Both the position numbers and the translations under genes were made by a program. The notes below the pieces were generated by a model. The model had not been told where the DNA came from. It saw only the letters and a list, made by a program, of their open reading frames with translations, and did not search any database. Positions 1-20,000 of a DNA stretch of 20,000 nucleotides are shown in pieces (the stretch's first letter is position 1; every line of letters begins with the position of its first letter). The stretch is taken from the IMG/VR virus record IMGVR_UViG_3300046058_000006; one strand, given 5' to 3'. The stretch is from an uncultured virus (IMG/VR IMGVR_UViG_3300046058_000006) (lineage: Duplodnaviria > Heunggongvirae > Uroviricota > Caudoviricetes).

Positions 1-28
1 CGCGGGTAAGCGGCATCAACGACGCGCG

Positions 29-931
29 CTAAGTGTTAATCAGGATTAACACGCAACGACACTGCGGATGGGTCGCCTGCGGGGGTAGCAGGTCCGAACG
101 GTTGTTTCTGACTTCTTGGATCGTATACTGTTTTCCTTCAAGCGCCTGGCACTGTGCGCACACGCGGTTATCCCCTGCCGTCGTATGCTCCATTTTCTTC
201 CCCGGCGTCGAACTGGCCCCTTCTATTCCGTATCCTACAGCGCGGTCGTCGTTGAACCAGTGATCATAAACATCCAGCGCGGTTTCGTTGTGCGCGCGTA
301 ACGTTTCGGTCCGGGCGATCATTTCGGCGCGGTGTACGCCAACTTTCCGCACGCGCTTACTAATCTGCCGGCCTACGTCGCGGGGGTTTTCCCCGCGAAG
401 CATACCGAACGTAAGCGTGTCCCGCACGTCGTCTGTAATGTCACCCGTCAGCGTTTCTAATTCGTTATAGTTGCGCGAAAACAAGCGCGAAAGCAACTGT
501 GATCTTTGCGCGCGGGGCAAAACATCTTCGCCGGCGTCGATCGCTATGCCAGCGCCTTCAAGCTGTGCGGTCGCAAAGGCTTCGCCTTTGGTTTCGGCGC
601 TTCTAACGTATTTCGCCGTGTAGTGCCGGCCTGCCGTTACTTCAGCGCGGCCCATCTTGTCTAAAACGCCCTGTTCGGCCTGTTCTTGTAACCAGCGGTT
701 GAACGCGGCGCGCGTCGCGGCCAGCGATCCGTCGTCTAAAGTTTCGGGTATACGATAATCTTCAAGCGCCGCGTCGGTCGTTCGGCGTTCGCTAATGGCC
801 AGCGCGTCGTTTTCGCCGATTGTCTTATTGACAGCCGCCGCCAAGCGCCGAACCCTGCCGGTTAGTTCCGGTCGGTACTGGCGTTCGCGTAGGTTGACCG
901 TGTGGCTTGGGTCGGCACTGTTCGATAGCAC
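29..931 (-). CDS. Phage head morphogenesis protein (Mu gpF / SPP1 gp7 family)
   Basis: Family motifs RAEMIARTETLRAHN, DNRVCAQC and C-terminal HPQCRC. Lies downstream of the portal gene. GTG start with a TATA-like CTATTA about 28 nt upstream. Confidence 0.9.
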   Translation of the reverse strand: MLSNSADPSHTVNLRERQYRPELTGRVRRLAAAVNKTIGENDALAISERRTTDAALEDYRIPETLDDGSLAATRAAFNRWLQEQAEQGVLDKMGRAEVTAGRHYTAKYVRSAETKGEAFATAQLEGAGIAIDAGEDVLPRAQRSQLLSRLFSRNYNELETLTGDITDDVRDTLTFGMLRGENPRDVGRQISKRVRKVGVHRAEMIARTETLRAHNETALDVYDHWFNDDRAVGYGIEGASSTPGKKMEHTTAGDNRVCAQCQALEGKQYTIQEVRNNRSDLLPPQATHPQCRCVLILINT

Positions 932-962
932 ACGGCCTTTGATTCGCCGGCCCTAATAGTCC

Positions 963-1409
963 TTAGTGGTCGTTAGACAGCATTTCGGCCAAGCGGCGCG
1001 CTTCTTCTTTCTGTTCGGGGTGTAGGTCCGGGTTATCAGCCCATCGTTCTAAGACGCGCACAGCCGCGTCAATCGTTCCCTGGTTGTAGGGGTATTCCTG
1101 TTCCCAAACTTCCCCGAACTGCACACACAAGACTAACAGCGGCGTCAGATCGACGGACGCACTGAAGCGGTCGCCGATCACAGGCAGGCGCGAAAGAACC
1201 GGGGCGCTTACCATTATTTCGACGGGTTCGCCTTCGTTAGCAATGTCAAAGTCGCCCGCTTCGATTTCTTCAGTGTGATCGTAGGCGTATTCACAAAACG
1301 CGCGGGCGATCGTAGCTTGATCGTCTACGTTCGGGTCGTTTTCGATTTCTTTCAGCCATTCGATGTACGCCTTCGCCGGTTTGTCCGCGTCGCGGTAGGT
1401 TTCGGTCAT
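963..1409 (-). CDS. Hypothetical acidic protein
   Basis: 148-aa ORF with halophile-type D/E-rich composition. Its ATG overlaps the TGA of the upstream small ORF (ATGA at 1406-1409). Confidence 0.75.
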   Translation of the reverse strand: MTETYRDADKPAKAYIEWLKEIENDPNVDDQATIARAFCEYAYDHTEEIEAGDFDIANEGEPVEIMVSAPVLSRLPVIGDRFSASVDLTPLLVLCVQFGEVWEQEYPYNQGTIDAAVRVLERWADNPDLHPEQKEEARRLAEMLSNDH

Positions 1410-1567
1410 ATGTAACCGCTTAGGGCTATGCTACCGAACAGGATAAAGATACCGACTATAAAGCGCCAGGGACAGCGCCGCAACAGACCTTCGGTGATCA
1501 ACCACCCGCACAGGTAGCCGCCGACTATCGGAATAGCGAACGCCAGGGCCGTTTTGCCGGCTAACAT
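1406..1567 (-). CDS. Small 2-TM membrane protein (53 aa; not in ORF track)
   Basis: Manual translation: MLAGKTALAFAIPIVGGYLCGWLITEGLLRRCPWRFIVGIFILFGSIALSGYI*. It overlaps the upstream gene's stop by 7 nt and the downstream start by ATGA, filling the gap exactly. Confidence 0.75.
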   Translation of the reverse strand: MLAGKTALAFAIPIVGGYLCGWLITEGLLRRCPWRFIVGIFILFGSIALSGYI

Positions 1568-1851
1568 TGCCCCGCGCCCATGCCCGGCAGTTGGGTTACG
1601 TCTTTGACCCGAACGTACCGATCACATTCGGGACATTCGCCTTCGCAACCCTTGAAAACAAAGCTATTCGGGTCGCGGTCCATGCTTGGCATATAGGTAC
1701 AGTCAAAGTCGTATGCTTGTAGGGTTGATACGCTTTGGCAAAACGGACAGCGCGCCAGCGTGCCGCGCGCATTATCAGCAATGCCAGTTGTATACGACGC
1801 GCCCATCGGATCGGTTTTAGTCAGCGGGGGTTCGTAATTAGGCCCGGCCAT
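1561..1851 (-). CDS. Small Zn-finger (CPxC...CPxC) protein
   Basis: CPFC and CPEC pairs. Start reassigned to MAGPNY (ATG at 1851) because a TTTTTTAT box lies about 30 nt upstream. Confidence 0.7.
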   Translation of the reverse strand: MAGPNYEPPLTKTDPMGASYTTGIADNARGTLARCPFCQSVSTLQAYDFDCTYMPSMDRDPNSFVFKGCEGECPECDRYVRVKDVTQLPGMGAGQC

Positions 1852-1877
1852 GGCTGTAACCAGCAGGTTACAGCCAT
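1850..1877. promoter_or_regulatory. Perfect 12-bp inverted repeat (putative operator) between TATA box and start codon
   Basis: ATGGCTGTAACC-AGCA-GGTTACAGCCAT. Confidence 0.6.
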
Positions 1878-1921
1878 AAAAAAGTTGTATAAAAGTCACA
1901 CAAAGTCGCACCAAGCGCGAC

Positions 1922-2059
1922 TTAGACCCGTTCGTTGCAACCTACGATAAGGTTTCCACAGTCCGCACAGGTGATTCTACAGCCGTCCTTTGTCGGCGCG
2001 CCGCCGTCGGCACAGTGATAACAGTCTACCATCGGGATGCTTGGGTAATTCGCGGTCAT
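1922..2059 (-). CDS. Zn-finger microprotein (45 aa, two CxxC motifs)
   Basis: MTANYPSIPMVDCYHCADGGAPTKDGCRITCADCGNLIVGCNERV resembles haloarchaeal one-domain C(P)xCG Zn-finger microproteins. Start reassigned from 2188 to 2059. Confidence 0.65.
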   Translation of the reverse strand: MTANYPSIPMVDCYHCADGGAPTKDGCRITCADCGNLIVGCNERV

Positions 2060-2125
2060 ACTAAAATCTGTTCGTCGCGGCACAGGCACGTTAGTTTTAT
2101 ACGATCCAGGCGTGTACGAATAGCT

Positions 2126-2704: not shown

Positions 2705-2722
2705 AACACCTCCTTACAATCG

Positions 2723-4390
2723 TTAAGCGTCAGCTTCAGCGCCGCCGCCGTTTTCACCTTCCCCGCCTTCACCGCCCGCTTGCGCGCCTGCGATTTCCGC
2801 CAAGGTTTCGCCGTCCGCCGCTTCGATTTCCTGAAGCGCGTTTTCAAGTTCGGCGTAGTCCATGTTCAAATCCTGTTCTACGACCTGTTCAAGCGGTAGG
2901 TAAGCGTCTACACCGCTCTGGATATAGAGCTTCCAACCCTGCATATACTTATACCAGGCTTCAGCGTCAAAGTCTTCGTCCTTCAGCGGGCTTTTCGATT
3001 GATCGGATTCGATCGCAAATTCTACACTGTCTATAAGATCTTCGCGGTCGCTGTCCGCGACGCTAACAATCCCCCGATCGATCAAGAAGCGCGCCTTCTT
3101 CCGAAAGATACCAGTGTAGCCGTCGGAAATCCGCCGGCGAATCCGGTTAACGTCCCGGTCGAACTGTTCTACACGCGGTTCCGTAACGTCGCGGTTGATA
3201 CTGTCGCCAAAGCCGACATACGCCTTCGGAACGTTAAGCCCGCCATAGATCGTATCGATGCTCATACGGATCGACGGTTCTATGTCCGGCAGTTCCGGCG
3301 TGTGCCATTCGGTTTCGACGCCGGGCGGCACGCCGAAGATACCACCTGGCGAATTATGCGCGCCGCCGCCCGATCCATCCAGGTCCGAATAGTCGGTTTC
3401 GTCGCCGCTTCGCCGCCGGTTTTCCTTCCACCCGCGCGACCCTGAAGCGCCCGACCCGCGCCCGCGCAAAGCGTTAATGAACTGTTGCATCTGTTGGGTC
3501 GTCCATTCGATTATATCCCCGGAAGGCAGTTCGACCTGGTTGAAGCTAACGTTCGCACGCGGATGGGCGATATTTTTCAGCGCCGCGTTGTAGTCGTCGC
3601 GCCTGTTCTGTACCGCTATCGCTTCTTCCGCAACGGGTTCAACGATCGACATACCGCGAACTTGGCCGGCCTTTCCTGTACTGCCGGCGCTGTGGTTCGG
3701 CGTGTCCGGCATGGGGTTCCGAACGATCTTGGTAACGTCGCGCTGTGAAAGCGGCACTACGTCGGCTTCAGCCTTGGACGAAGCGCGCCCCATGTTCTGA
3801 ATGTAACAAGCCCATTCGCCGCGCGCATTCTGCGGCGTGCCTTCAGGCACGTTCGCCGCGTCGTCGTCCGGTCGAATCAGCCGATCGCTTTCGGGATAAC
3901 AAAGAATGTCAACAGATAACGGATCGATCGACTGAAAGCCGGAAAAGTGGCTTGGATCGGTCGGGTCGTCGTACATATGTTCAAGCAATACGGTTCCGTC
4001 CAAGTCATGCGCACGCGCGTCGTACCACAACTGCGGGCCTAACGGCTTGTCGTATTCGCCGCCGTAAATAACGCATTGATCGGCCCACTTTCGTAGCAGG
4101 TCGGTTAGGTCGTCGTCATCCGACCGAACAGTAAAGCCAGGCCGGGCGACTTCCCCGCAACGCAAATCCAGGCCGGGGTTGATGTACGGGTTTTCCCGGT
4201 ACAGCCGCCGGTATAGCTGTATCTGGTTACGATCGGGGGAACTGCGTTCGTAGCCGCCGGCGCTGAAGCCGCCGAACCCTGAAGTCGTAGTTTGTGGGTC
4301 GGGAATGTCGCCCAAGAAATCCGGGCGGTCGCCGTCGCTTAGTGCAAGCGCGGCTTTTGTAATGTCGCGCGCGTCGCTATATAAGCTCAT
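2723..4390 (-). CDS. Portal protein
   Basis: 555 aa, located between TerL and the gpF-like gene. Has portal-like segments (LYRENPYINPGLD, RGMSIVEPV, IYGGLNVPKAYVG) and an acidic tail. Confidence 0.85.
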   Translation of the reverse strand: MSLYSDARDITKAALALSDGDRPDFLGDIPDPQTTTSGFGGFSAGGYERSSPDRNQIQLYRRLYRENPYINPGLDLRCGEVARPGFTVRSDDDDLTDLLRKWADQCVIYGGEYDKPLGPQLWYDARAHDLDGTVLLEHMYDDPTDPSHFSGFQSIDPLSVDILCYPESDRLIRPDDDAANVPEGTPQNARGEWACYIQNMGRASSKAEADVVPLSQRDVTKIVRNPMPDTPNHSAGSTGKAGQVRGMSIVEPVAEEAIAVQNRRDDYNAALKNIAHPRANVSFNQVELPSGDIIEWTTQQMQQFINALRGRGSGASGSRGWKENRRRSGDETDYSDLDGSGGGAHNSPGGIFGVPPGVETEWHTPELPDIEPSIRMSIDTIYGGLNVPKAYVGFGDSINRDVTEPRVEQFDRDVNRIRRRISDGYTGIFRKKARFLIDRGIVSVADSDREDLIDSVEFAIESDQSKSPLKDEDFDAEAWYKYMQGWKLYIQSGVDAYLPLEQVVEQDLNMDYAELENALQEIEAADGETLAEIAGAQAGGEGGEGENGGGAEADA

Positions 4391-4469
4391 ATGGTTATAT
4401 TCTTTTTTATTACGTCGCGGTGTAAAAACATGAGCACGCGGGCCTACAAGCGCGTATCACTTTTCCGAC

Positions 4470-4700
4470 AAGCGCTAACTGAAGCGGCGGCTTCAGTTTG
4501 TATCAGAACCGCGACGGTTATAGCCCCTGGATTCAGCGCCGGCTGAAAGTCGCCCCTATTGTAGAAGGGACTGAAATGTTTTTTAGGACAGAAATCGCTT
4601 CTACCGCCCGATTAGAAATCGGGGGTCTGAAGCCGCCCGCAAATCAGCGCTGATTGTACGAACCGTACAACCCCTGTGTCTAAGTTTTCTGACACCGAAA
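4470..4700. other. Structured non-coding element upstream of portal
   Basis: GGCGGCTTCAG (4486-4496) is complementary to CTGAAGCCGCC (4627-4637) and encloses several short hairpins. No convincing ORF. Confidence 0.4.
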
Positions 4701-4722: not shown

Positions 4723-4747
4723 AAGCCGGGCGCTTGTCGCCCGGCTT
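4723..4747. terminator. Perfect hairpin at the stop codon of the 4746 gene
   Basis: AAGCCGGGCG-CTTGT-CGCCCGGCTT, followed on the minus strand by a TTTTT tract. Confidence 0.45.
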
Positions 4748-5174
4748 ACATTAGTCGTTTCGCCGATCGGAACCACTTACGGAACGCGCGGCTTTCGTTT
4801 TCGTAGTGTTTACGCCCGCTACACAACCGGGAAATCACGGCCAGCGAAACGCCGCCGCGCGGTCCTAAGATCAAGTGGGCGCTGTCAGACCCTAATTCGC
4901 CTTCATTATGCCATTTCGTTTCGGATCGCACGAACAGGCTAAGGCGGTCGCCGTTACGCCCGTCTAAGGGGTCTAAGTCGATTTCAAACTGTAGCCGGGT
5001 CGGTTTTTCGGGCGTGTTCCGGCGATCTTCAGCGCGCCGAACAGCGGCGACGGCAGAACGAACGCGCCGGCGCTGTGTAGGCGTCGCGTCAGCGGCTTCT
5101 AACGCGCCGCGAATGTGGTCGGGTAGCTGTTCTTCGCGCATTTCTTCGGCCAGGGGCGCGCTTCGTTGTGCCAT
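4746..5174 (-). CDS. Hypothetical protein (Arg-rich, possibly nucleic-acid binding)
   Basis: Start reassigned to MAQRS (5174); GAAAGAC-TTATGT BRE/TATA about 30 nt upstream. Divergent from the nuclease gene. Confidence 0.6.
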   Translation of the reverse strand: MAQRSAPLAEEMREEQLPDHIRGALEAADATPTQRRRVRSAVAAVRRAEDRRNTPEKPTRLQFEIDLDPLDGRNGDRLSLFVRSETKWHNEGELGSDSAHLILGPRGGVSLAVISRLCSGRKHYENESRAFRKWFRSAKRLM

Positions 5175-5269
5175 TGCATTTAGCACGAACAGCGGTATAC
5201 ACATAAGTCTTTCACATTAGGCCATACACTTACGCAAAGGGTTATGAAGCGGGCAGTGCTACGCCAGGT

Positions 5270-5926
5270 ATGGGACAGCTAACTGATAGCGCCCCTGAAG
5301 AACAGGCAAAGGTGTTCCTGTCCGCATGGCTACAGCGCGAAGGCGCGGCTGTGTTTTGGGAAGAAAACACCGAATGGCCGTTCCCGACCTTCAGCGTGTC
5401 CGGTACAGGCGGACGAAAACCCGACTTGGTTGCTTCGACGCAGGCCGGAAAAACAATCGCGTTAGAAGTGAAAAGCGGCTACAATACAAGCGGGCCGATT
5501 ACCGGGTTGATCCAGGCGTTCGGCTACTGGCGCGACTATTCGACCCGGAAAGCGAACTACAACCTGCCGAACCGCATGGGCGATAATCACAAGATCGACG
5601 TGTTCGCGGTAGCGACGCAGTACGCGAAACAAGGCGCGGCCTTTTGCCCGGATGGGAACCGCGATTCTATCCGCGACGATTATGCGTCAGACGAAAGAAC
5701 TTGGCGAAACACGCCGGATCAAGAGCACAACTGTAGCCTTGTGCTTCGCATGACAGCCGCGCGGCTTATCCGCGACCTATACGGCTACGAAAACCTGCCG
5801 GACGGCGCGCCAGGCTTCGGCCTGTTGCTGTCTGACGCCTTGGACGACCGAAGCGGCGATACAGTGCGCCCATGGGTATGCTACTACGACGAAAGCTTTG
5901 ACAATTGGGAACCTGTGGTAGAATGA
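5270..5926 (+). CDS. PD-(D/E)XK restriction-endonuclease-like protein
   Basis: Motifs E..(PEEQ), KPDLV, ALEVKSG and QAFGY (QxxxY). AAAGGG-TTATGA promoter about 28 nt upstream. Confidence 0.75.
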   Translation: MGQLTDSAPEEQAKVFLSAWLQREGAAVFWEENTEWPFPTFSVSGTGGRKPDLVASTQAGKTIALEVKSGYNTSGPITGLIQAFGYWRDYSTRKANYNLPNRMGDNHKIDVFAVATQYAKQGAAFCPDGNRDSIRDDYASDERTWRNTPDQEHNCSLVLRMTAARLIRDLYGYENLPDGAPGFGLLLSDALDDRSGDTVRPWVCYYDESFDNWEPVVE

Positions 5927-6180
5927 ACCGCAAGAAAGTGCCGGATCGCCTGGTAAGCGACGACTTCCGTTTTGACGGACAAACAATCAGCGAAATGGGG
6001 TATAACATCTACCAGTTCGGCGATTATGTGCGAATCGTACCGAACGATTCAAACAGCAATTGGGACAGCCGAAACGAAATGGGAACTGTGTGCCGGATCA
6101 TGGCACAGTTTGACTATATAATGGTACACGCTAACAGCAATCGTATGGTCTTTTCGCCCGAAACTGTTGCGCTGTTCTAA
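5923..6180 (+). CDS. Hypothetical protein (85 aa)
   Basis: Start reassigned to MNRKK, giving an ATGA overlap with the nuclease stop. Converges on TerL with a 4-nt overlap. Confidence 0.6.
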   Translation: MNRKKVPDRLVSDDFRFDGQTISEMGYNIYQFGDYVRIVPNDSNSNWDSRNEMGTVCRIMAQFDYIMVHANSNRMVFSPETVALF

Positions 6181-7664
6181 CCGACTACTGGCGCGACGCT
6201 ATCCGGCCTGTGCGGCCGGGAAGTCGGCGCGTTGCCCCCGGCCGCATAGCACGCGATTGCAAGCGCGTCCGGTATATCGTCGCCGCGCTTTTCGTCCCTG
6301 TGGTCTACTTTGACGTAGCCGCTTGGCGTGTGACTAAATTCCAAGTCCGTTAGCTGTTCGATTAGCTTCGTGTGATCCGGTAGGGTTAGACTGCCTTCGT
6401 CAATCCGGCGCTTCAGCAGGTTGTAGTATTCGCTTTTCGTTTTCAGGGTTGACTTTATTTCGCCAATGTTTGTCACGCCATAATCAGCGGCAAAGTCAAC
6501 AGCGCCGCCGCCGATTACGTTGCTTTCGATATAGATTTCTTCGGGGCCAAAGTCGCGGTTCATAGCGTTCGCCATGCCGACTATTTCTTTCGTATCGTTT
6601 TCAGGCATGACCTGGTAGACGTTTACCGTACCCTTTTCGTCTACAAGCACGCCTGCGGTTTCGTCTTTGCCGCCGCGTGCTGGATCAATGCCGCCGAAGC
6701 ACGCTATGCCTTCGGGCGCGAACTGCGGTAGGTCGTCGCGGACACATTCTTTTGCGTCGCGGTGTTTAATGAATACGTCGCCTTCGTCCGTAAAGATCGC
6801 CAGGTATTCCTTTTCGAAGGAAAGCGTATCCAAGCTTTCGCGCTTGTCTTGGACGAACGAATCCGCGACCATAGGGTTGATCGTAGTCGGCCAGTGAAAC
6901 CGAAACCAGTCACTATCATCTTCGCGTGCGTCGTTACATTTCCTGTAGAAATAGCCGCTCTTACCGTTCGTAGTCGAATACAAATAAAATTCAGTCGTGT
7001 CCGGCCTATCTTCAAAGCCGTCAATGTGGGAAACGTCGCCGGTAAATTCCCCAAACATCGGTTCTATGACTTCCGTAAGGATGGATTCTTTTTTATTGAA
7101 CGCGGCTTCGTCGAAAATTATGATTTGCGGCCCTAAGCCCCGTATCTGACTGCCGTCGTCGCCGGTCGTCTGACTGATAATCCGCGCGCCGCTGTCAAAT
7201 TCGTACATCGTTTTATTGTCCGTTTCGATGCCGAAAAATTCCTTTACGGACATACCGAACCGATCCGGCCAGGGGCTTTCGTAGTACCAGGCCGTCGCCG
7301 CTTGCATCATTTCGTCCGCCGTTGACTGATACGGCGCGGTGATCAACGTATCTTCGCCGTGTGCGGGCTTCAGCGGCGCGTCAGCCGCGATTAGCGACCC
7401 GCAAAACGTTTTACCGCCGCGCCTGCCGATCGGCGACGCGCTTTTCGTGTGTTTATTCCATGCGTTAACGTCTAACATTTTACGCTGGTAGTCGAACAGC
7501 GTCGGACCGAACAGCATTTCTACGCGCTTCGAACGCGGTAGTTTGCTAACGTTCTTCAGGAAATCAGCCGGCGACTGTTCTGCCGGTTCAAGCTGAATAT
7601 CTTTAACTTTCGTTACGTAGTCTAACAGCTCATCCGAATCCGGCAGGTCGTCTTTAGTAGGCAT
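6177..7664 (-). CDS. terL: Terminase large subunit
   Basis: Q-motif FDYQ, Walker A GRRGGKT, Walker B IIIFDEAAF, coupling motif YSTT, RNase H-like GIDPA and DDIPDA. Confidence 0.95.
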   Translation of the reverse strand: MPTKDDLPDSDELLDYVTKVKDIQLEPAEQSPADFLKNVSKLPRSKRVEMLFGPTLFDYQRKMLDVNAWNKHTKSASPIGRRGGKTFCGSLIAADAPLKPAHGEDTLITAPYQSTADEMMQAATAWYYESPWPDRFGMSVKEFFGIETDNKTMYEFDSGARIISQTTGDDGSQIRGLGPQIIIFDEAAFNKKESILTEVIEPMFGEFTGDVSHIDGFEDRPDTTEFYLYSTTNGKSGYFYRKCNDAREDDSDWFRFHWPTTINPMVADSFVQDKRESLDTLSFEKEYLAIFTDEGDVFIKHRDAKECVRDDLPQFAPEGIACFGGIDPARGGKDETAGVLVDEKGTVNVYQVMPENDTKEIVGMANAMNRDFGPEEIYIESNVIGGGAVDFAADYGVTNIGEIKSTLKTKSEYYNLLKRRIDEGSLTLPDHTKLIEQLTDLEFSHTPSGYVKVDHRDEKRGDDIPDALAIACYAAGGNAPTSRPHRPDSVAPVVG

Positions 7665-11394: not shown

Positions 11395-13248
11395 CTATTC
11401 GCTATCCAGTTCGTCCGCCAGCAGGCCGGCCGCGTCGCGTTCGTCGTCCGCCAGCGGTTTGCCTTCGGCGGCTTTGCGTAGCAGGTTCGCCGCGAAGCCC
11501 TTTGCATCTTCGTCGCTAACGAAATGGTGTAGAGCTTTTTCAGCGCGTCCTTCGTCGCCGTCAGCCGATTCTTCGCCGCCGTCAGCGGCCAGGTTGTCTA
11601 TTTCTGCGTCGCCGTCCGGCCCGAAGCCGCCGTAATAGTCGTTCATAACGGCGCGTCGTTCGGTGTAGGCGTCGCCAAAGGACATTCCTTCGTCGCGCAC
11701 GTCAACGATTAGCGCGTCGTCGCCGTTCGTGGGACGAAGCGCACGCCCGATAGTCTGGATCACTTCAACCGCCGACTTTCCGCCGTGTGCCAGGATAATC
11801 GCGTTAACATCGGGAATGTCAACGCCTTCTTTCAGCAACGTGGAAACCACTACGTCGATTTCACCGTCAGCGAACGCGGCCAGCTTTTCGTCGCGGTCAA
11901 CCGTATCGGACGTAACGACTTCAGCCGTAACGTCGCTGTCGCGCCCGGCGATCTTTTCAACTATGAAGTGTGCTTGATCGATCCGGTTGACGTTAACGAT
12001 CGTTCGGCGACCGACCTGGCTAAGACCGACTGCCTTTTTCGCTATAGCGTCGTTGCGCGCGTCGCTGTGTTCGATACACCGCTTGTAAGCGTCGTGATAT
12101 TCTTCCGCGCGACCGTTGCGGGTCGGGCCGTCGTGTTCGATCGTTTCGAAGCGCGGACGGGCCAGGTAGCCCTGCCGGATCATGTATTCCGCGCCACGCG
12201 AATAGATCACAGGGCCGATCGCCCCGTTGATCCAGATTTCTTCAGGTTCGTTGCGCCGCCAGGGGGTTGCTGAAAGACCCAAGCGGAACGCGGACGGGAA
12301 CAGTTGACCGACGCGGTGCATCGTATCGGCGACTGAAGTGCGGTGTGCTTCGTCGTAGATCGCCATGCCGTATTCGGCAGGCGATAGCGGCGCGTCGCCG
12401 TCAGCGCCGGACGTGCCTTTGCTAACAAGCGACTGCATGATAGCGACCGTAACTTGGTCGCCTTCGCGCCATTCGCCGTCGCCGATAATGCCGGGTTCGA
12501 CGCCTAACAGGTCGCGGATTTCATCGGCCCACTGGTACAAAAGTTCGCGCGTATGCACGAACACCATGGTCTTGCGCCCGACCTGCCGAATCGCGTGTAG
12601 CGCCGTGACAGTTTTGCCCGTGCCGGTAGGCAGTTCGATCACACCCGTCTGTTCTTCGGCGATCTTGTGGGCGGCTTCGTTCTGGTAGTCACGTAGTTCT
12701 TCTTCAAAGTGCCAGGACACGTCTATCGCGTCGCCTTTAAGACCGGATTCGGGGCCGGCCAGCGTAACGTCGAAACCTTCCGCTTCAAGAATCGCGGCCG
12801 CGCGGTCAACCAGGCCAAGGGGCGCGGTTCCCTGCCGGCGGTCTACGACGTGTTCGACTTCAGGGATTGACGGGTCAAATTCAGCGTCGGGGTTTTCATA
12901 CGCAAAGAAGTTATCCAGCACACCGATCGCCCGACCGCCGTCAATGTGAAACACGTTTTCGGCAGGGTCGCGCCGAAGCGTGACTTCAGGGCCGCTATCG
13001 TCGCCGGCGTTGATATAAAATTCGTCCTGTTGACTGCCGGTAGCGCGCCGAACCTGTTTCAGCGATTCTTCGCTGATTTCAACGGCCCATGCGAATTGAT
13101 CGTCGTCTAATTGATCGTATTCGCGGGGGTAGCAGGGTTCGTAATGAACGACGCCCCATTCGGTGCTTTTTATGTCGCCTTTGTCCGCGCCGATAATCGC
13201 CAGCTTTTCGCCGTATTCCGTGTCAACGGTCGTCGTTTCGTAGCTCAT
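11395..13248 (-). CDS. Superfamily 2 DNA helicase (XPB/Rad25/UvsW-like)
   Basis: LRDYQ, LPTGTGKT, YDEAH, GLSATP, EGVDIP, IQTIGRALR. Start reassigned to MSYET (13248); TTTATACG box at 13297-13304. Confidence 0.92.
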   Translation of the reverse strand: MSYETTTVDTEYGEKLAIIGADKGDIKSTEWGVVHYEPCYPREYDQLDDDQFAWAVEISEESLKQVRRATGSQQDEFYINAGDDSGPEVTLRRDPAENVFHIDGGRAIGVLDNFFAYENPDAEFDPSIPEVEHVVDRRQGTAPLGLVDRAAAILEAEGFDVTLAGPESGLKGDAIDVSWHFEEELRDYQNEAAHKIAEEQTGVIELPTGTGKTVTALHAIRQVGRKTMVFVHTRELLYQWADEIRDLLGVEPGIIGDGEWREGDQVTVAIMQSLVSKGTSGADGDAPLSPAEYGMAIYDEAHRTSVADTMHRVGQLFPSAFRLGLSATPWRRNEPEEIWINGAIGPVIYSRGAEYMIRQGYLARPRFETIEHDGPTRNGRAEEYHDAYKRCIEHSDARNDAIAKKAVGLSQVGRRTIVNVNRIDQAHFIVEKIAGRDSDVTAEVVTSDTVDRDEKLAAFADGEIDVVVSTLLKEGVDIPDVNAIILAHGGKSAVEVIQTIGRALRPTNGDDALIVDVRDEGMSFGDAYTERRAVMNDYYGGFGPDGDAEIDNLAADGGEESADGDEGRAEKALHHFVSDEDAKGFAANLLRKAAEGKPLADDERDAAGLLADELDSE

Positions 13249-13322
13249 GGTTTGTCCGGGGTTCGTCGCCCCGTGATTAACACGAATACCCGGACACGTA
13301 TAAACCCATCGTCTTAGGGTAG

Positions 13323-13565
13323 TCAACCCCAATTCGATTCATTCAGCAAAAACACGAAATAGAAGAACTTACCGACCACATACGGCAGGACGGCTATAAC
13401 GATGGTAAGCGCCGCGCCAGCATGAATCGATACGTGAAACACGTTAGAAATTACCATGGATACGATACCGAAACAGGCCAACAGGATAGCGCCGATAAAC
13501 CAGCACACTACGCCGTCAACCTGTACGCTGTCATCATTCCAAATAAATTCATCTTCTTCGGTCAT
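13323..13565 (-). CDS. Small 2-TM membrane protein
   Basis: Acidic N-terminus and two hydrophobic segments; ATGA overlap with the ERCC4 gene. Confidence 0.7.
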   Translation of the reverse strand: MTEEDEFIWNDDSVQVDGVVCWFIGAILLACFGIVSMVISNVFHVSIHAGAALTIVIAVLPYVVGKFFYFVFLLNESNWG

Positions 13566-14206
13566 GCTGTCACCGCGTCAGCGATCCGGCGCGCTTTCTT
13601 TTGACCTATGCCATTAACGTTCGTTAGCTTTTCCGGTTCGGCGTGTGCAACGCGGAACACGCCGCCGGCGCTAACGAAATGATCCAGCAGGCGCGACGCC
13701 AGTTCCGGGCCGACTGCCGGCAGGCCTTCGACAAGGTAACGCGGGCGCTTTTCAGGCGGCACGTCCGGCGCGTCGCGGATACTGGCCGGCGAAGCTTTGT
13801 CGTTGCGAAATTCGTTCGCGCGCTTGTCAACGACGTAGGCGGTCATTTCCTTATCGAACGTCGGCAGGACTTCTATACCCATGCGCGGGACGGCTTCAAT
13901 CGCGCCGATCACCGCTTTGTCGCTTATGTTGCGCATTGCCATGGTTTCTTTCCACCCGCCTTCAAGAATCAGCACGGGCTTCAGGTCGTTTTCTTCGCAC
14001 GCGCTATACAGCGCGCCAAGTTGTGACCATATGCTGTTTTCGTTCTGCGTCAGCCGATCCACAAAGTCCGGGTAGCGCTTCCGTTCTATCAGGTATTCGC
14101 CAGCCAGGAAATCACCCGCGCCAAGCTTGTCCTTTTCGTAGTCGTCGCCGCTTTCAGCGAACGCGGCCGCGTGCATTTCCGGCGGTTCGCGCGTATCAAT
14201 GATCAT
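13562..14206 (-). CDS. ERCC4/XPF family structure-specific endonuclease with tandem HhH
   Basis: IIDTRE, GDF, IERK, LILEG, and HhH motifs LPAVGP and VNGIGQKKA. Confidence 0.92.
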   Translation of the reverse strand: MIIDTREPPEMHAAAFAESGDDYEKDKLGAGDFLAGEYLIERKRYPDFVDRLTQNENSIWSQLGALYSACEENDLKPVLILEGGWKETMAMRNISDKAVIGAIEAVPRMGIEVLPTFDKEMTAYVVDKRANEFRNDKASPASIRDAPDVPPEKRPRYLVEGLPAVGPELASRLLDHFVSAGGVFRVAHAEPEKLTNVNGIGQKKARRIADAVTA

Positions 14207-14329: not shown

Positions 14330-16972
14330 TTACGCGAACGCCAGCAGTTCGGCCTGATTCGTCGCGTTCGGATTTAGATTAACCTGTTCGATCGCCTTCG
14401 TAAAGTAGTTTTGCCATATGTATGACCGGCTTTCCGGGGTAAAAGAAAAGGTGTCAACGCCCGCGCCAGGCACTTCTTGCGCCGCGCCATAGTCGGTATC
14501 TATTTCACCGTCCTTGTAGGCGCGCCAGGGTAGGGGTTCGTCCCGGTAGACCGGATGGATCACGCTTTCGCGCCCTGTATCGAACTTGATATAAGGCACT
14601 TTGTCACCGCGTCCAAGCTTCGCGCCGTCGATGTACCCGGCTTCGACCGCCGCGTTATACATCTTCGCGGCCCTGGCGTGCGCCGTATGGTTCGAATACG
14701 TATCACAGTTACATTCGTCGCGGTCACACACGCATGACAGCCGTTTTCGAAGCGACGCACGCTTTACCAGGTCGCCGTCGCGGTCGCCGTCTAACACGGC
14801 GTCGCGTTCGTCTAAGATAATCGGCGCGGTCGGTTCATCTTCTAACAGCGCTTCGACCAAGCGCGCTTGTAGGTTTGACGCGCCCTTCAGCGTGTCCGAC
14901 TTTTTGCACTTCAAGCCTACGACCTTGTGTTCGTCCGTCGCCTTTCCATCTTCCCAAACTTTCTTTACTGCATACGACTTTTTCTTGTCGGTCTGAATGA
15001 ACCGCGACGCGACATAATCCACGTCCAATTCTATGAACGATTCATCGCCGTTCATTTTAAACCCGACAAGGTGTTTGATGTGTCGATTCAGGCTGTCTAC
15101 AACAGCTTCCGCCGCGTCAGCCGCAACCTTGGCGCTGTCGTAGTCGTCCTTCAGGCTGATAAAGACGCTATCAGTGTCGCCGCCGATCACTTGGTCTACA
15201 GCGTCTATTTCGTTTTCTACGAACCGCCGGCTTTCGCGGATTAGGTACTGGCCGGTTTCGGTAATGTGTTCGGACATACCAGGGACGTAATAGCGGTGCA
15301 ATGGCGACGCGACCACGCCGAACGACGAATTATACAGGGACTTAATACCCATATACATAGCCGCCGCGACTTTCTTTTCAGGCGTGCCGTTTTCCGCCGC
15401 GTTCCGGCGATCTTTAAATTCTTGCGCCAAATCTTCCAAGTCCGACGTAGCATCGGCCAGGATGCCCCGCTCGTAATCTGGATGCAAGAATCCGCCGCGC
15501 GCGTCGCCGTCCTTTTCAGGGTCGAAGCGGCTGTTAACACCTTCGATAAACGGCTGTTCCGTGTTCGCCCAATAGTCGCCAGGTCCGTCAGCCGTCTTGT
15601 TAACGTCTAACAGCTTCGGTTTCGTTATGATTTCCCGGTCGTCCAAGTAGTCGCCGACTTCTTTTTTCAGACCTTCGTAGCCGTCCGTATCAACCCAAGT
15701 GTTTTCGCCCATGTTTAGCGCCTGAATGATGCTTGGATACATCGAACTGAAGTCAGCGACGAATACCCATTCGTGCGTTCCCGGCGTCGTTTCGAACACG
15801 TAGCCGCCCGGAAATTCGCCAGTGTCCCGGTAGCGCCCGCGATCGGGGAACACGTAGCCCTGTTCGTTCGCGCGCCGTAAGATCACACCGTCAACGGCCT
15901 TTCCGACCGCGACGCGCGGGTAGCCGTTGCTGTCGTAGGTGATCGTAGACATTCGCGTATGCCCCTGTTTGCACACACGCGCGGTCGTTTCGACAAGTAG
16001 GTACTGTTCCGAAATGCGGCGCGTTAAATCCGCGTCCTGTAGGTTGTAGGACTTCAGGCGTTCCGGGTCGTTATTCCACCATTCGCGTAGTTGCTTGTAC
16101 GATTCGCTTTCGTCCATATCCTTCGAATCGCCTAATTCGTGTTCGGCGACCGAATCCAGGCCATAGCTGTCTAATTGGTCGCGCTTGAACGACCGGAACA
16201 GGCCCATGGCGTCGAAATGGATCAAGCCAAATTCCGGCCAGGTAAAGCCCGAAACGCGGTCACTTTCTTCAAGCCGGTTTTTCAGGTACGGCAGATCGAA
16301 CGATTCGCTATTCCACCCGACAAGCACAAAGTAGTTTTCCAACAGACCGCCGTCGGAACGATCGGCCGGGTTCCCTATCAGTTCGGTGTAGATTTCCTGT
16401 TCCGTGCCAGTGATGAAAAATTCGTTGCCTTCGCCGTCAACCGCCGCGAAGGAAAGGATTTGCGCGTCCGCGTCGTCCGGTTCGGGGAACCCATCGGCCG
16501 GGTCTACTTCTATGTCAAAGTATAGCACGTCGCCCGGATCGGGCGTATCCAGTTCAAGCAGGTCCGGGCGATCGATTAAGACGCGCCTGGCATAAGGCAC
16601 GTCAGCCTGGTAGGTTTCCGGCACTATGTCAGCGTCGCTTTGCGGCATATCGGCCAGGTCGTCCCGAAGGTCGTCCAATTCGTTGCGAAAGCTACCGATC
16701 GTTCCGGGCGCTTCGGCTTCTACTTTCACGAAACCGTCCGGCGCATTATCGTAGTCCGGGTTCGTCCAAGCTTCCCACAGTTCGGTCTTAGACGTATCCA
16801 GTTCGCCCCATGGAATGTTATCAAAGTCGCCGACTTCCATGTAGAAGTACGGGTTGAACGGGGCTTTGAACTGTTTTCGGACTTTTTCGCCGTTTTCTTT
16901 CATTAACAGCTCAACGTACAACGGATCGTCCGTATTGTCGAACCCATATTGCAGGTCGTACACGCGGGACAT
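14330..16972 (-). CDS. polB: Family B DNA polymerase with 3'-5' exonuclease
   Basis: ExoI FDIE, ExoII WNSESFD, ExoIII YNLQD; polymerase motifs DFSSMYPS, KSLYNSSFG, GDTDS, KKKSY. Confidence 0.96.
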   Translation of the reverse strand: MSRVYDLQYGFDNTDDPLYVELLMKENGEKVRKQFKAPFNPYFYMEVGDFDNIPWGELDTSKTELWEAWTNPDYDNAPDGFVKVEAEAPGTIGSFRNELDDLRDDLADMPQSDADIVPETYQADVPYARRVLIDRPDLLELDTPDPGDVLYFDIEVDPADGFPEPDDADAQILSFAAVDGEGNEFFITGTEQEIYTELIGNPADRSDGGLLENYFVLVGWNSESFDLPYLKNRLEESDRVSGFTWPEFGLIHFDAMGLFRSFKRDQLDSYGLDSVAEHELGDSKDMDESESYKQLREWWNNDPERLKSYNLQDADLTRRISEQYLLVETTARVCKQGHTRMSTITYDSNGYPRVAVGKAVDGVILRRANEQGYVFPDRGRYRDTGEFPGGYVFETTPGTHEWVFVADFSSMYPSIIQALNMGENTWVDTDGYEGLKKEVGDYLDDREIITKPKLLDVNKTADGPGDYWANTEQPFIEGVNSRFDPEKDGDARGGFLHPDYERGILADATSDLEDLAQEFKDRRNAAENGTPEKKVAAAMYMGIKSLYNSSFGVVASPLHRYYVPGMSEHITETGQYLIRESRRFVENEIDAVDQVIGGDTDSVFISLKDDYDSAKVAADAAEAVVDSLNRHIKHLVGFKMNGDESFIELDVDYVASRFIQTDKKKSYAVKKVWEDGKATDEHKVVGLKCKKSDTLKGASNLQARLVEALLEDEPTAPIILDERDAVLDGDRDGDLVKRASLRKRLSCVCDRDECNCDTYSNHTAHARAAKMYNAAVEAGYIDGAKLGRGDKVPYIKFDTGRESVIHPVYRDEPLPWRAYKDGEIDTDYGAAQEVPGAGVDTFSFTPESRSYIWQNYFTKAIEQVNLNPNATNQAELLAFA

Positions 16973-17029: not shown

Positions 17030-17362
17030 GTGACTAACGAAACAGCGATCTTGGACGAAGCAAAGCAAATCGTTAACGAACGCGAAAGCACGAACGGGCC
17101 GGCGATCCAAAGCATGACTACGATTCGCCAACTGTGGAATGTCTACCTTGGCGAAGCGTATCCCGACATTACGACGCGCCAAGCGGCGGTCATGCTGGCC
17201 CTGCTGAAAGTCGGCCGGCACACGCATGGGGATAACGGCATAGACGACGCGCGCGACATTGCCGGGTACGCAGAACTGGCCGCGCGGGTCGAAGAAGAAG
17301 GCGATCACACCTGTTGCGACTGCTGTATCAACGACGAAACGGGGCCGGTTAACAAGTTTTAG
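17030..17362 (+). CDS. DUF6378-like phage protein (possible MazG-like fold)
   Basis: ILDEAKQIVNER..G, IRQLWNVYL, MLALLKVGR and DDARDIAGYA match the DUF6378 pattern as I recall it. Start reassigned to the GTG at 17030. Confidence 0.7.
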   Translation: MTNETAILDEAKQIVNERESTNGPAIQSMTTIRQLWNVYLGEAYPDITTRQAAVMLALLKVGRHTHGDNGIDDARDIAGYAELAARVEEEGDHTCCDCCINDETGPVNKF

Positions 17363-18237
17363 TCGTCGTCCCAAACGCTACCGCCGACCTTTTTACATTC
17401 GTCTACGAACGGACAGAACCGCATACAGTTGTCCGGGTCTATGGGGTCGGTCGCCGGAATGGTATCTTCTTGGCGGTTGTTATAGTGCAGGTACGCACGC
17501 TGTACGATTTCAAGCCAAACCTTAGCTTCTTGCGGCACGCGATAGCGCCTTTCATCCAGTTCGTTCCGGGTAATGTAGGTCAATTCACCCGGCGCGTCGA
17601 ACGCCTGCTGATAGGTCGCTAACTGGTATTGATGCTTCGGCCTGAAACCACGCTTGTTAAAGCGATCAAGCCAGTCTAATTTCTTGATCGTTTTGGTTTC
17701 AATTACCCGATCGATTGACCCATCATATTCCGACCATTCGCGGACAGTATCGATCGATGGGTAGCCTTCGATTTCTTCGTTGTAAGACGACTTAGCGTAC
17801 CGCTGTCCGTCCTGGCCGTCGAACACGTAAGCAACATGGCCGCGACCTGGCGCGTCAACGTTGAACACTACCCAATCCGATTCGCCTACGATCCGAAGGT
17901 AGCCATTCGGCGCGTCGTCCGCCGGCAGAAAGATCGTACAACCCACGTCCTGCCGAACGCGCTTGTCGCCAAATTCTTCGCGTAGTGCGTCGCCATACCT
18001 ATCTTCTATGTCATTCCCCAAGGGAAAATATGGCGACGCTTGGGGTTCTTTCCCGTTCTTGTGCGCCCAATATTCTTTCCGCTGGCACTTGGCAACATGG
18101 GACGCATGAACGTCGGTATCAACCGCTTTATGGCGACCTGGATCATGGCGGTCAACGTATTCGGCTTCAAGCCATTTCGGGATTAGTGGATCAAGCCGTC
18201 GAAAAGAGCCAGTATCTTCCGCCGCCGTCAATTCCAT
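17359..18237 (-). CDS. Cas4-like PD-(D/E)XK exonuclease
   Basis: HASHVAKCQRK, GESD, IETKT, QLATY and C-terminal CMRFCPFVDEC (1+3 Cys Fe-S arrangement). Confidence 0.85.
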   Translation of the reverse strand: MELTAAEDTGSFRRLDPLIPKWLEAEYVDRHDPGRHKAVDTDVHASHVAKCQRKEYWAHKNGKEPQASPYFPLGNDIEDRYGDALREEFGDKRVRQDVGCTIFLPADDAPNGYLRIVGESDWVVFNVDAPGRGHVAYVFDGQDGQRYAKSSYNEEIEGYPSIDTVREWSEYDGSIDRVIETKTIKKLDWLDRFNKRGFRPKHQYQLATYQQAFDAPGELTYITRNELDERRYRVPQEAKVWLEIVQRAYLHYNNRQEDTIPATDPIDPDNCMRFCPFVDECKKVGGSVWDDD

Positions 18238-18530: not shown

Positions 18531-18776
18531 CTAAATAATTGACGCAAACCACAGCACGCCTACAACGAACAGCGCCGCAGTAGTCGCGCCCCAAGCCGGC
18601 ATTACAATCGCGTCGAAAGCGATTTGCGGCGTTTTGACCTGTGCGAACGCTTCGCCCCACGTTAGGTTTCGCTTTCGCTTAACGCTAATTACCGACCACG
18701 AACACATGATAAAAACCATTAACAGAACGATCGGGTACGCCAGTGCGAACGCTAACCAAACCAAGCGCCATTCCAT
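18531..18776 (-). CDS. Small 2-TM membrane protein
   Basis: Start reassigned to MEWRL, 29 nt after TATAAA. Basic loop SVKRKRNLTW. Confidence 0.7.
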   Translation of the reverse strand: MEWRLVWLAFALAYPIVLLMVFIMCSWSVISVKRKRNLTWGEAFAQVKTPQIAFDAIVMPAWGATTAALFVVGVLWFASII

Positions 18777-18795
18777 ATTCCGCATACGGCAGGCG

Positions 18796-18810
18796 TGATT
18801 TTATATTTTT
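18796..18810. promoter_or_regulatory. Bidirectional TATA element
   Basis: GATTTTATATTTTT lies about 28-30 nt from both divergent ATGs (18776 minus, 18830 plus). Confidence 0.55.
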
Positions 18811-18829
18811 CCGTCGGTATTATATTCGT

Positions 18830-19186
18830 ATGGGAATGGTAACGGACCCGCCCGACCGGATTTCCGTGCGTAGGCTTACCAAAGCATACGCGGCGAATGA
18901 CATTTCTACTGAAGAACTAATGCGAACACTTCAGGAAAGCTATTCGTTTCACGAACAGATAGAAGTGATTAGCAGTCCGAAGGCAGGCGTGCTTACCATT
19001 TCCTATAACCCGGATGCACACCCGCGCTTGCACAAGAAGCTGAAAGCCGCCGGATGGGAAACCGACGGCATAGTAATAGACGCTTATCAGACGACCGAAT
19101 CCGTCGAACGGACACAGCCAGGCCGCGTCGCTACCTACAGGCTTGGTAACAAGTCAAGTAACCGCATGACTATCTTTCGCGGTTGA
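18830..19186 (+). CDS. Hypothetical protein (118 aa)
   Basis: Start reassigned to MGMVT to fit the TATA spacing. Confidence 0.6.
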   Translation: MGMVTDPPDRISVRRLTKAYAANDISTEELMRTLQESYSFHEQIEVISSPKAGVLTISYNPDAHPRLHKKLKAAGWETDGIVIDAYQTTESVERTQPGRVATYRLGNKSSNRMTIFRG

Positions 19187-19188
19187 TT

Positions 19189-19371
19189 TCAGCCGGTCAA
19201 GCTGGCAATGCCGCTAACGACCGCCATGAACAGCAGGTATGCAACCGTCAACTGAAGCACGGTAGCGGCGGCTGTATAAGAAATCATAAAGCCAGCAGTA
19301 AACCAGGCCGCGACTGCTAAAAGCGCAAAAATAGACATTACTATAACCAAAGCTAACGCGCCGTTATCCAT
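19189..19371 (-). CDS. Small 2-TM membrane protein
   Basis: Almost wholly hydrophobic 60 aa; TTTTTTA box about 28 nt upstream. Confidence 0.7.
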   Translation of the reverse strand: MDNGALALVIVMSIFALLAVAAWFTAGFMISYTAAATVLQLTVAYLLFMAVVSGIASLTG

Positions 19372-19414
19372 ACGGTTACTTTTGCCGCGCCCGCGTAAAA
19401 AAGTGCGGTCTAAG

Positions 19415-19816
19415 CTACTGGCCGCGGGTCGCTTCTTGTCGCGCCCGTCGCGCTTGCCAACTGGCCGTTTCCGTATCCTGTCGCGCTTCGCGGATTTCTT
19501 CTTCGACTTCCGGCGGTCCGTCGTATTCGCCCCACAACGCGCCGGCTTCGGCTTCGGCCAATTCCAAGAACGCCATTAGCACGTCCGCGCGGTGAATCCC
19601 TGCCGTTTGGACAAAGATACCGCCTTCAGCGTCGCGTTCCTGTACGATCGCTTCGAACGTATCGAAGCCCCCAGGCGGTTCGGCGTAGACGGTTTCGCCG
19701 TCTACGTTTTCGCGCATGGTCTTGACCGCCTTCTTAACACGCCGCGCCAGTTCCGCACGCGGATCGTCCGCACGTTCTAACGCCGCGCGTAGTTCCGGCT
19801 GTACGGTTCCGGTCAT
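19415..19816 (-). CDS. Hypothetical protein
   Basis: Acidic 133-aa ORF with an ATGA overlap to the upstream partial gene. Confidence 0.7.
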   Translation of the reverse strand: MTGTVQPELRAALERADDPRAELARRVKKAVKTMRENVDGETVYAEPPGGFDTFEAIVQERDAEGGIFVQTAGIHRADVLMAFLELAEAEAGALWGEYDGPPEVEEEIREARQDTETASWQARRARQEATRGQ

Positions 19817-20000
19817 GCTTCGATCACAGTGCCGTTTTCTTCCCGAAGGCCAGCTTCAAACAGCACATCGTCCAAGTCAGCGGGTTCGTCCGCCATTTGG
19901 TCTACGAACGCCGCCAGTTCCGACCGTTCGACTACGCCCCCGTCTTGGCTTTGGACGTAAACGCGCGCCGCTTCAGCGCCCGCTGAAAGGTCGCCAGTGT
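19813..20000 (-). CDS. 3' end of a gene running off the window (acidic, possible winged-helix C-terminus)
   Basis: Open frame TGDLSAGAEAARVYVQSQDGGVVERSELAAFVDQMADEPADLDDVLFEAGLREENGTVIEA*. Confidence 0.65.
   Translation of the reverse strand, partial: TGDLSAGAEAARVYVQSQDGGVVERSELAAFVDQMADEPADLDDVLFEAGLREENGTVIEA

Follow-up and report, generated by a model that had tools for sequence, protein, structure and literature searches.

Sequence features

The DNA described here, called the window, is a stretch of 20,000 bases from an uncultured virus (IMG/VR record IMGVR_UViG_3300046058_000006). It is part of a haloarchaeal-type tailed virus from halite metagenomes, has a G+C content of 55.7% and encodes, nearly all on the minus strand, genes such as those for a portal protein, a terminase and a family B DNA polymerase. 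The stretch is present in 13 sequencing runs from four studies labelled halite or rock metagenome, one of which contains every word sampled from it and may be its source; no RNA dataset is among the runs listed for it. The feature studied is the near-total loss of the trinucleotide GAG and its complement CTC. GAG occurs five times and CTC 12 times (17 sites), whereas 693 sites (289 and 404) are expected from base composition (zero-order model) and 466 (195 and 271) from a first-order Markov model. The ratio of observed to expected counts (O/E) is thus 0.02-0.04 over both models, and the second-lowest trinucleotide of the window has an O/E of 0.67. The scarcity on both strands noticed by eye in a preliminary description was therefore borne out (17 sites against 466-693), as was its remark that the tetramer CTAG is missing (0 against 47-76 expected) while GATC (119), TCGA (98) and GGCC (108) are plentiful.

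Within the 22 open reading frames (ORFs), glutamate is encoded by GAA 408 times and by GAG six times, and CTC accounts for one of the 408 leucine codons, in keeping with the same description; in other two-fold codon pairs the third base is preferentially G or C (GAC 353 : GAT 144; AAC 164 : AAT 41). Counted by frame on the sense strand, GAG occurs 6, 1 and 5 times (expected 208, 84 and 69) and CTC once in each frame (expected 109, 48 and 68). The non-coding DNA (3,323 bases) holds one GAG and one CTC, compared with 54 and 55 expected. Because all frames, both strands and the non-coding DNA are depleted, the loss is a property of the DNA itself and not of codon choice. Neither counts near the Markov expectation nor a loss confined to in-frame codons was found, and the earlier suggestion that selection acts on DNA rather than on codons is supported both here and by the synonymous replacements described below.

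The genes assigned in the window are the following.

29..931, minus strand: Mu F-like head morphogenesis protein
2723..4390, minus strand: portal protein (phrog_9232, 2e-40)
4746..5204, minus strand: P0002, 152 aa, function unassigned, window-specific, in the hypervariable portal-TerL gap
5270..5926, plus strand: P0001, 218 aa, PD-(D/E)XK nuclease-like accessory gene
6177..7664, minus strand: terminase large subunit (TerL)
7732..8268, minus strand: terminase small subunit (TerS)
8292-9677: protease-like protein
11395..13332, minus strand: SF2 helicase (ResIII and Helicase_C), the helicase half of a split Hef-like pair
13562..14206, minus strand: ERCC4 and HhH nuclease (Hef nuclease domain)
14330..16972, minus strand: family B DNA polymerase (PolB)
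17359..18237, minus strand: Cas4-like nuclease

Residual sites and their context

The 17 remaining sites are listed below; L001 and L002 are IMG/VR fragments of the same virus species as the window and are referred to as strains.

188..190, minus strand: TGGAGCA, GAGC type
2710..2712, minus strand: AAGGAGGTG (GGAGGT), not GAGC, 11 nt past the portal stop codon
2916..2918, minus strand: CAGAGCG, GAGC type
2927..2929, plus strand: TAGAGCT, GAGC type
3261..3263, minus strand: ATGAGCA, GAGC type, within the portal gene
4386..4388, minus strand: ATGAGC, portal start codon plus serine codon
4432..4434, plus strand: ATGAGCA, GAGC type
5723..5725, plus strand: AAGAGCA, GAGC type, within P0001
6958..6960, minus strand: AAGAGCG, GAGC type
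7629..7631, minus strand: ATGAGCT, GAGC type, close to the TerL N-terminus
8005..8007, minus strand: TAGAGCA, GAGC type
10992..10994, minus strand: CGGAGAC, not GAGC, about 11-13 nt upstream of the ATG at 10981
11532..11534, plus strand: TAGAGCT, GAGC type
13244..13246, minus strand: ATGAGC, Met-Ser start of the helicase (probably the true start)
15470..15472, minus strand: ACGAGCG, the sole CGAG of the window, kept in strain L001
16910..16912, minus strand: TTGAGCT, GAGC type, not in strains L001 and L002
18206..18208, plus strand: AAGAGCC, GAGC type, kept in L001 and L002

As had been read by eye, GAGC/GCTC is the context of nearly all remnants (15 of 17, and 13 of these are WGAGC), and the two exceptions, at 2710 and 10992, are those already named. 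The positions first given for individual sites were right to within one or two bases, except for one placed at about 11522, which actually lies at 11532. ATGAGC is the form taken by five of the GAGC remnants, of which two probably mark Met-Ser gene starts. The site at 2710 resembles a Shine-Dalgarno sequence, with no start codon within the following 10 nt, and that at 10992, judging from its distance to the ATG, is possibly a ribosome-binding site. Three sites outside the GAGC context were seen in the lineage, two in the window and one at position 456 of L002, and all three read GGAGR.

The strength of the loss depends on the flanking bases. With the counts of a sister contig, L004 (IMG/VR, 11,964 bases), scaled to 20 kb as the yardstick, the following depletions were obtained.

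GAGD: 2 in the window, about 583 from L004, about 290-fold depletion
SGAGC: 2 in the window, about 211 from L004, about 100-fold depletion
WGAGC: 13 in the window, about 102 from L004, about 8-fold depletion

All eight tetramer pairs that contain GAG are depleted together; GAGT/ACTC is absent (152 expected), and GAGA, GAGG and CGAG occur once each (152-192 expected). The pattern is most simply described by one reader that recognizes a GAG core and prefers certain flanks, a description preferred over five or more unrelated tetramer systems because all eight pairs are depleted.

Lineage specificity and synonymous replacement

The GAG/CTC content of the window was compared with that of its relatives and of other viral loci, as follows; L003 corresponds to positions 455-11964 of L004.

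Window: O/E 0.02
L001 (same species, 95.1% nucleotide identity, 256 mismatches): O/E 0.02
L002 (same species, 94.0% nucleotide identity, 212 mismatches): O/E 0.01
L003/L004 (12 kb, syntenic sister, five orthologues with 54-74% amino acid identity): O/E 1.24-1.27
G001 (52.8 kb, syntenic relative, PolB about 56%): O/E 0.60
Six cultured haloviruses (distant): O/E 1.25-1.46
About 180 other fetched viral loci (mostly unrelated): O/E 0.42-1.65

A second GAG/CTC purge was sought in about 190 fetched loci (some overlapping) and none was found, the lowest O/E being 0.42. The strongest trinucleotide depletion outside the lineage in one survey of sequences was that of CAG/CTG in L003/L004 (O/E 0.17). As only the window and L001/L002 are purged and all other sequences compared have values of 0.42-1.65, the purge is specific to one lineage, and it arose after the split from L004. 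The preference for GAG and CTC codons that had been stated for haloarchaea holds in the relatives, L003 encoding glutamate by GAG 196 times and by GAA 102 times and using CTC for 101 of 241 leucines.

Alignment to L003 shows that the loss was reached by synonymous replacement. At conserved glutamate positions with GAG in L003 the window lineage has GAA in 52 of 53 cases, leucine CTC of L003 is represented by CTT, TTG, CTG, TTA or CTA, and GAG/CTC out of frame was lost via synonymous third-base changes or switches between serine codons.

Further relatives were sought by several routes. Megablast of the window against 50,697 phage records gave no match, nor did a single-protein scan of IMG/VR with TerL. 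A PolB alignment scan of JGI metagenome contigs and GTDB genome contigs yielded no relative, and alignment scans with the Cas4-like protein and the TFB homologue returned only the same four contigs of the clade, besides unrelated giant-virus and other loci.

Ongoing enforcement among strains

Of the possible synonymous single-base changes in the window ORFs, 9.1% create GAGD and 4.4% create GAGC. The differences between the window and its two strains depart from these proportions as follows.

L001, 180 synonymous differences: 16.4 new GAGD expected, 0 observed; about 8 new GAGC expected, 3 observed
L002, 108 synonymous differences: 9.9 new GAGD expected, 0 observed; about 5 new GAGC expected, 1 observed

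One difference in L001 and two in L002 would make GAGD if they stood alone; all lie in clusters of several substitutions whose combined haplotype avoids GAGD. Compared with the window, contigs of four further runs each carry about 830-1,030 differences, and among the best-supported 40 of their 1,699 variants there is no new site (about 4.4 expected). The purge is still enforced among strains; it is real, striking and actively maintained.

Other purged words

Further words are rare or absent in the window: GCAGC (0 against 32 expected), CCCAG (1 against 30), GGCGCC (0 against 36), TCGCGA (0 against 23), CCGCGG (4 against 44) and CTGAAC (0 against 18), together with ACGCGT, CCCGGG, GAATTC, GACGTC, GTCGAC, TCCGGA and CGTACG, all of which have a count of zero. 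GTGG/CCAC and GGTG/CACC stand about two-fold below the relatives, and CTG and CAG are the most over-represented trinucleotides (O/E 1.49-1.60). G001 also lacks some of the words absent from the window but not others. GATC occurs twice in G001 (404 expected), in contrast to 119 copies in the window (O/E 1.58), which suggests that members of one virus clade face different hosts or defence repertoires.

In L004, ACAG/CTGT (0 against 89 expected), CCAG/CTGG (0 against 122) and CAGC/GCTG (3 against 122) are purged; the overall O/E of CAG/CTG is 0.18, all 74 remaining CAG are preceded by G or T, glutamine is encoded by CAA 61 times and by CAG 14 times, and GAG/CTC is kept. The avoidance profile thus differs between related viruses, GAG being affected in the window, ACAG, CCAG and CAGC in L004, and GATC in G001, as expected from host-specific defences. 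Since the nearest relatives purge other words, the purged word changes quickly between lineages, and the GAG purge is the extreme end of a known type of signal.

AGCT, GATC and CCAG/CTGG are all missing from two low-G+C viral contigs of IMG/VR recovered by the TFB scan, L194 and L195 (34% G+C); for CCAG/CTGG, 67 and 57 copies, respectively, would be expected. Tetramer purges of the asymmetric kind are therefore not restricted to haloviruses.

Proposed explanation

The explanation that we favour, and to which we give an even chance, is that the virus lineage has escaped a DNA-targeting defence of its host that reads a GAG core. The selecting agent would be a defence of the halite archaeal community, encoded, we infer, by the host, and its recognition core GAG would be modulated by the flanks, with GAGD and SGAGC ruled out and WGAGC allowed in part. 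By offering no targets the virus would escape, GAG/CTC having been exchanged for synonymous codons and synonymous codon pairs. The agent may be one ultra-short-site enzyme, or a bipartite (Type I-like) family whose members share a GAG half-site. A roughly equal, small penalty per site, such as nicking or a lesion that slows replication, could have led to the gradual removal of about 2,000 sites; gradual removal needs either such a small penalty or a diversified enzyme family with a GAG half-site. Alongside the GAG purge, this genome also shows restriction-type avoidance (of CTAG, palindromes and longer words).

The preliminary description had already proposed a host defence that reads GAG or GAGD. 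This remains the best fit in that the asymmetry at the fourth base is real, the avoidance profile is broad and relatives purge other words. Several points weigh against it. No host, enzyme or methylation motif has been identified, the tolerance of WGAGC is described but not explained, and the part of the genome seen amounts to about 22 kb of about 67 kb (the window and a little beyond). With about 2,000 sites in the genome, an all-or-none nuclease leaves no gradient of fitness, and the host itself would need protection at a site every 15-20 bp or so. We know of no restriction system that reads only 3 bp. No 3-bp site is present in the available parts of haloarchaeal restriction-modification (R-M) lists (including PMC11033074), in which the GAG-containing motifs span 6-12 positions (CTCGAG, GWGCWC, GAGCAGC, CTCCAG, GTCGAGG, GRAGAAG, TCCTCGG and GAAN5CTCC).

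More tentatively, and with more doubt than confidence, a class of readers of about 3 bp may be envisaged (S-A-G core plus flank modulation), in hypersaline archaea or their viruses, with specificity switching between lineages. If this were true, one lineage would have been forced to delete every GAG and its sister ACAG, CCAG and CAGC, and codon usage would have been rewritten genome-wide by an immunity, either restriction-like or lesion-making, whose recognition word is the shortest known.

Alternative explanations

A context-specific lesion or mutator enzyme is an unlikely alternative; the candidates are a cytosine deaminase with CTC as its target and a DarT-like ADP-ribosyltransferase that modifies single-stranded HCTC. 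The sites would have been hypermutated away, or each would carry a small replication penalty. With such an enzyme the number of sites could fall smoothly from about 2,000 to almost none, and the effective motif HCTC (GCTC being spared) is as long as the known DarT motifs, TNTC and TTTW. CTT, TTC, GAA and AAG, which a single transition would produce, are enriched (Markov O/E 1.19-1.50), and the viral genome includes the split Hef-like pair of helicase and nuclease, Hef being a fork-repair function in archaea. However, it is the transversion products CTG and CAG that are the most enriched (1.49-1.60), and the replacements track synonymy and codon preference rather than one type of mutation, as in the exchange of xCT Cxx for xCG Cxx in seven of eight cases. 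The roughly 290-fold depletion of GAGD would moreover need a site-specific mutation rate hundreds of times above background, and no enzyme of this kind was identified, PADLOC giving generic helicase matches only.

The virus might instead avoid its own nuclease, an explanation to which we assign a low probability: a virus-encoded GAGD-like cutter or nickase would shred the GAG/CTC-rich host DNA, and the viral genome would lack the site instead of being methylated. Viral enzymes that read three bases plus an excluded fourth do exist, as the chlorella-virus nickases Nt.CviPII (CCD) and Nt.CviQII (RAG) show. The only candidate is P0001, which on the basis of its conserved residues and predicted structure appears to be PD-(D/E)XK nuclease-like and is a weak candidate for this role. 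It belongs to an unnamed family of 91 proteins, and the catalytic set E10, P51-D52, E66 and K68 is conserved in at least 90% of the 53 aligned members. The model (predicted local distance difference test, pLDDT, 90.8) has an alpha-beta-beta-beta-alpha-beta core, with helices at 9-23 and 74-91 and strands at 27-30, 42-44, 53-56, 62-68 and 96-98; a fold predicted from the single sequence was uninformative (pLDDT 36.7). The best structural neighbours are restriction-like nucleases, namely AF1548 (Z 7.7), XisH (7.5), PaqCI (7.0), the nickase N.BspD6I (6.3) and FokI (5.7). The neighbours overall, which include Hjc and NucS, have middling scores (Z 4.6-7.7), and as all are below Z 8 they may reflect a mere common arrangement, as the tool itself warns. 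By language-model similarity, the nearest cluster carries the name 'Type II restriction endonuclease' (score 0.93). Foldseek of the model against the PDB gave no match at E <= 0.001, phmmer against PDB sequences only a chance-level match, and Pfam, NCBIfam and PADLOC no match for P0001, P0002 or the other small ORFs.

No methyltransferase adjoins P0001, and the unpurged 52.8-kb relative G001 has no homologue of it, both of which speak in favour of a self-avoiding nuclease. Against this, one contig of run X2 joins position 5206 to 5928 and leaves out exactly P0001 (5207-5927), so that the gene is strain-variable, yet the purge is common to all strains seen. Homologues were sought by tblastn in phage and plasmid records. 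A Methanosarcinales virus with a homologue (27% identity, beside a primase) has no strong purge (lowest trinucleotide O/E 0.50, lowest tetramer 0.28), and the homologue on a haloarchaeal plasmid lies in an apparent defence neighbourhood, likewise with no adjoining methyltransferase. Unless it were already protected, a virus acquiring a nuclease with about 2,000 sites in its own genome would destroy itself. The pattern of P0001 fits a free-standing selfish gene of the homing-endonuclease type.

The portal-TerL gap in which P0001 lies (4391-6176, 1.8 kb) is hypervariable among strains, with loose ends at 4625 in three runs, whose sequence diverges from there on, and opposite-strand joints; it holds two genes without counterpart in G001.

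It is very unlikely that GAG or CTC is the protospacer adjacent motif (PAM) of the dominant CRISPR-Cas system of the host, so that a PAM-free genome would be neither sampled nor targeted. PAMs have 2-4 nt and can lie on either strand, and GAG is functional as a PAM of E. coli type I-E. It is among the PAMs examined for that system in the available part of PMC6568314, and CRISPR systems are reported from a halite community, including one in a nanohaloarchaeon, in the accessible portion of bioRxiv 10.1101/029934. A PAM matters only beside a spacer, however, and from so tiny a benefit per site the absolute ban among strains (0 new GAGD against 16 and 10 expected) would be hard to obtain. TTC, a common haloarchaeal I-B PAM, is over-represented in the window (632 copies, O/E 1.38), and the flank rule, under which GAGC is tolerated, and more so after A or T, is unlike the reading of a type I PAM.

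The idea, also suggested earlier, that many ordinary 5-7 bp restriction motifs containing GAG or CTC add up to the purge has little left to recommend it. Many listed haloarchaeal R-M motifs contain GAG/CTC and the virus avoids many longer words, but GAG need not vanish for a long motif to be lost, since changing any one position suffices; the removal of about 99.7% of GAGD is not expected when a single change anywhere breaks a 6-7-mer. The counts of GAGT/ACTC (0) and of GAGA, GAGG and CGAG (1 each) given above come close to refuting it, and cultured haloviruses that avoid many such words keep a GAG/CTC O/E of 1.25-1.46. The idea survives only in the form of GAG as the constant half-site of many bipartite motifs.

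Codon or tRNA bias, which the glutamate codon counts resemble at first look, and an artefact of sequencing or assembly, for instance a misreading of GAG as GAA caused by a modified base, are rejected, since out-of-frame, antisense and non-coding sites are equally lost and other two-fold pairs favour G or C at the third base, and since a misread would turn leucine CTC into phenylalanine TTC, whereas leucine is retained by other codons at 27 of 40 aligned CTC positions and three assemblies from different metagenomes agree with contigs of four further runs.

Comparison with known systems

Near-total loss of short words is on record for haloviruses, CTAG and GATC being absent from the HF1 group (PMC7230728) and AGCT, CTAG and TGCA from Hardycor1 (PMC7911831), as far as the available text of these reports goes. 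The loss seen here resembles these cases in that it is near-total, affects both strands, is lineage-specific and can be read as escape from sequence-specific host defences, and in that the window also lacks CTAG and about a dozen 6-bp palindromes. It differs from palindrome avoidance in that the word has three bases and is not a palindrome, that about 450-680 sites are lost per 20 kb and that no cognate system is known; a 3-bp asymmetric word falls outside the 4-6 bp palindromes by which restriction-type avoidance is usually recognized. Non-palindromic tetramers are strongly avoided by Hardycor1 (CAGC 0.01, CATC 0.03 and CCAG 0.11 in Table 2 of PMC7911831), which its authors, in the part available, ascribe to host defences such as R-M. 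Our own count in the Hardycor1 record agrees with that table (CAGC 1 against 566 expected, CCAG 11 against 566). The window and Hardycor1 are alike in purging asymmetric short words, and a purge of this kind is also seen in the sister contig L004 (ACAG 0, CCAG 0, CAGC 3). Unlike the single tetramers of Hardycor1, the eight GAG tetramer pairs of the window fall together, and their common denominator is therefore the trinucleotide.

The frequent-site enzymes of chlorella viruses, Nt.CviPII (CCD), Nt.CviQII (RAG) and CviJI (RGCY), are comparable to GAGD recognition in reading two or three bases plus an excluded neighbour. They differ in being virus-encoded, with the viral DNA guarded by methylation and not by site loss, and no homologue was identified in the window. 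Among Type I enzymes, EcoAI (GAG(N7)GTCA) and EcoEI (GAG(N7)ATGC) have a GAG half-site. A haloarchaeal Type I motif, GAAN5CTCC, is given in the available part of PMC11033074. A 3-base half-site (GAG, or CTCC) is a normal unit of such enzymes and can be combined with many partner half-sites, which would make GAG an efficient target for deletion; on the other hand, there is no evidence of a bipartite motif in the window, and a rule for the fourth base is not expected of these enzymes.

No report of trinucleotide GAG/CTC avoidance was found in the literature as far as its main texts were available; supplementary tetramer or motif tables might list further words. What is already in print for haloviruses, within the same limits, is the avoidance of CTAG, GATC and palindromes and of a few asymmetric tetramers, to which the trinucleotide purge is added. 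Motif avoidance is among the few ways to read the specificity of an unknown defence directly from a viral genome, and an enforced trinucleotide purge implies a DNA reader with a word shorter than that of the restriction systems known to us. The agent, if found, might prove to be a frequent-site nuclease, a nickase or a base-modifying enzyme of a new type, and the pair of natural GAG-free and synonymous GAG-rich DNA offers a ready experimental handle. The removal of about 99.7% of GAGD at no visible cost to the proteins illustrates the extent of synonymous freedom, and the contrast with the CAG-type purge of the sister suggests fast switching of specificity in an arms race.

Genome context and other genes

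One protein of the window, P0001, was found on contigs of 66,920 and 64,906 bp, from which a genome of about 65-67 kb is deduced. The closest cultured relatives are haloarchaeal tailed viruses, PolB being 23-26% identical to that of Hafunaviridae and TerL 29% identical to that of HGTV-1. Hallmark genes and local gene order are common to the window and Thumleimavirales-like haloarchaeal tailed viruses, although the kinship is distant; the order Cas4, small ORF, PolB is the same as that annotated in HRTV-27. No tRNA gene is present in the window. As regards the earlier suggestion of an incompatibility with a viral base modification, no modification gene was seen within the 22 kb or so that could be reached.

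The split Hef-like pair (11395-14206) consists of the SF2 helicase, an 80-aa ORF and the ERCC4 and HhH nuclease, which matches the C-terminal nuclease portion of archaeal Hef (NCBIfam, 4.5e-31); G001 has this pair too. The match of the viral helicase to the PADLOC PbeA models (3.5e-29) reflects generic SF2 helicase similarity and is not read as a Pbe system. The virus clade also encodes a TFIIB/TFB homologue with a zinc ribbon and two cyclin repeats, at the following positions.

L002, 141-998 (just beyond the window end): TFB homologue
L003, 5275-6147: TFB homologue
G001, 32648-33544: TFB homologue

The protease-like gene has been relocated: in the window (8292-9677) it lies between TerS and the replication genes, and in G001 (48800-49753) between the portal module and the Mu F-like gene, with synteny otherwise conserved around it. 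Downstream (3') of the portal gene is a 530-base non-coding stretch (2189-2722) with a perfect GGAGGTG at its start and a G+C-rich hairpin, CCGCGCTACAGGCGCGG; it could contain a small RNA or a regulatory site.

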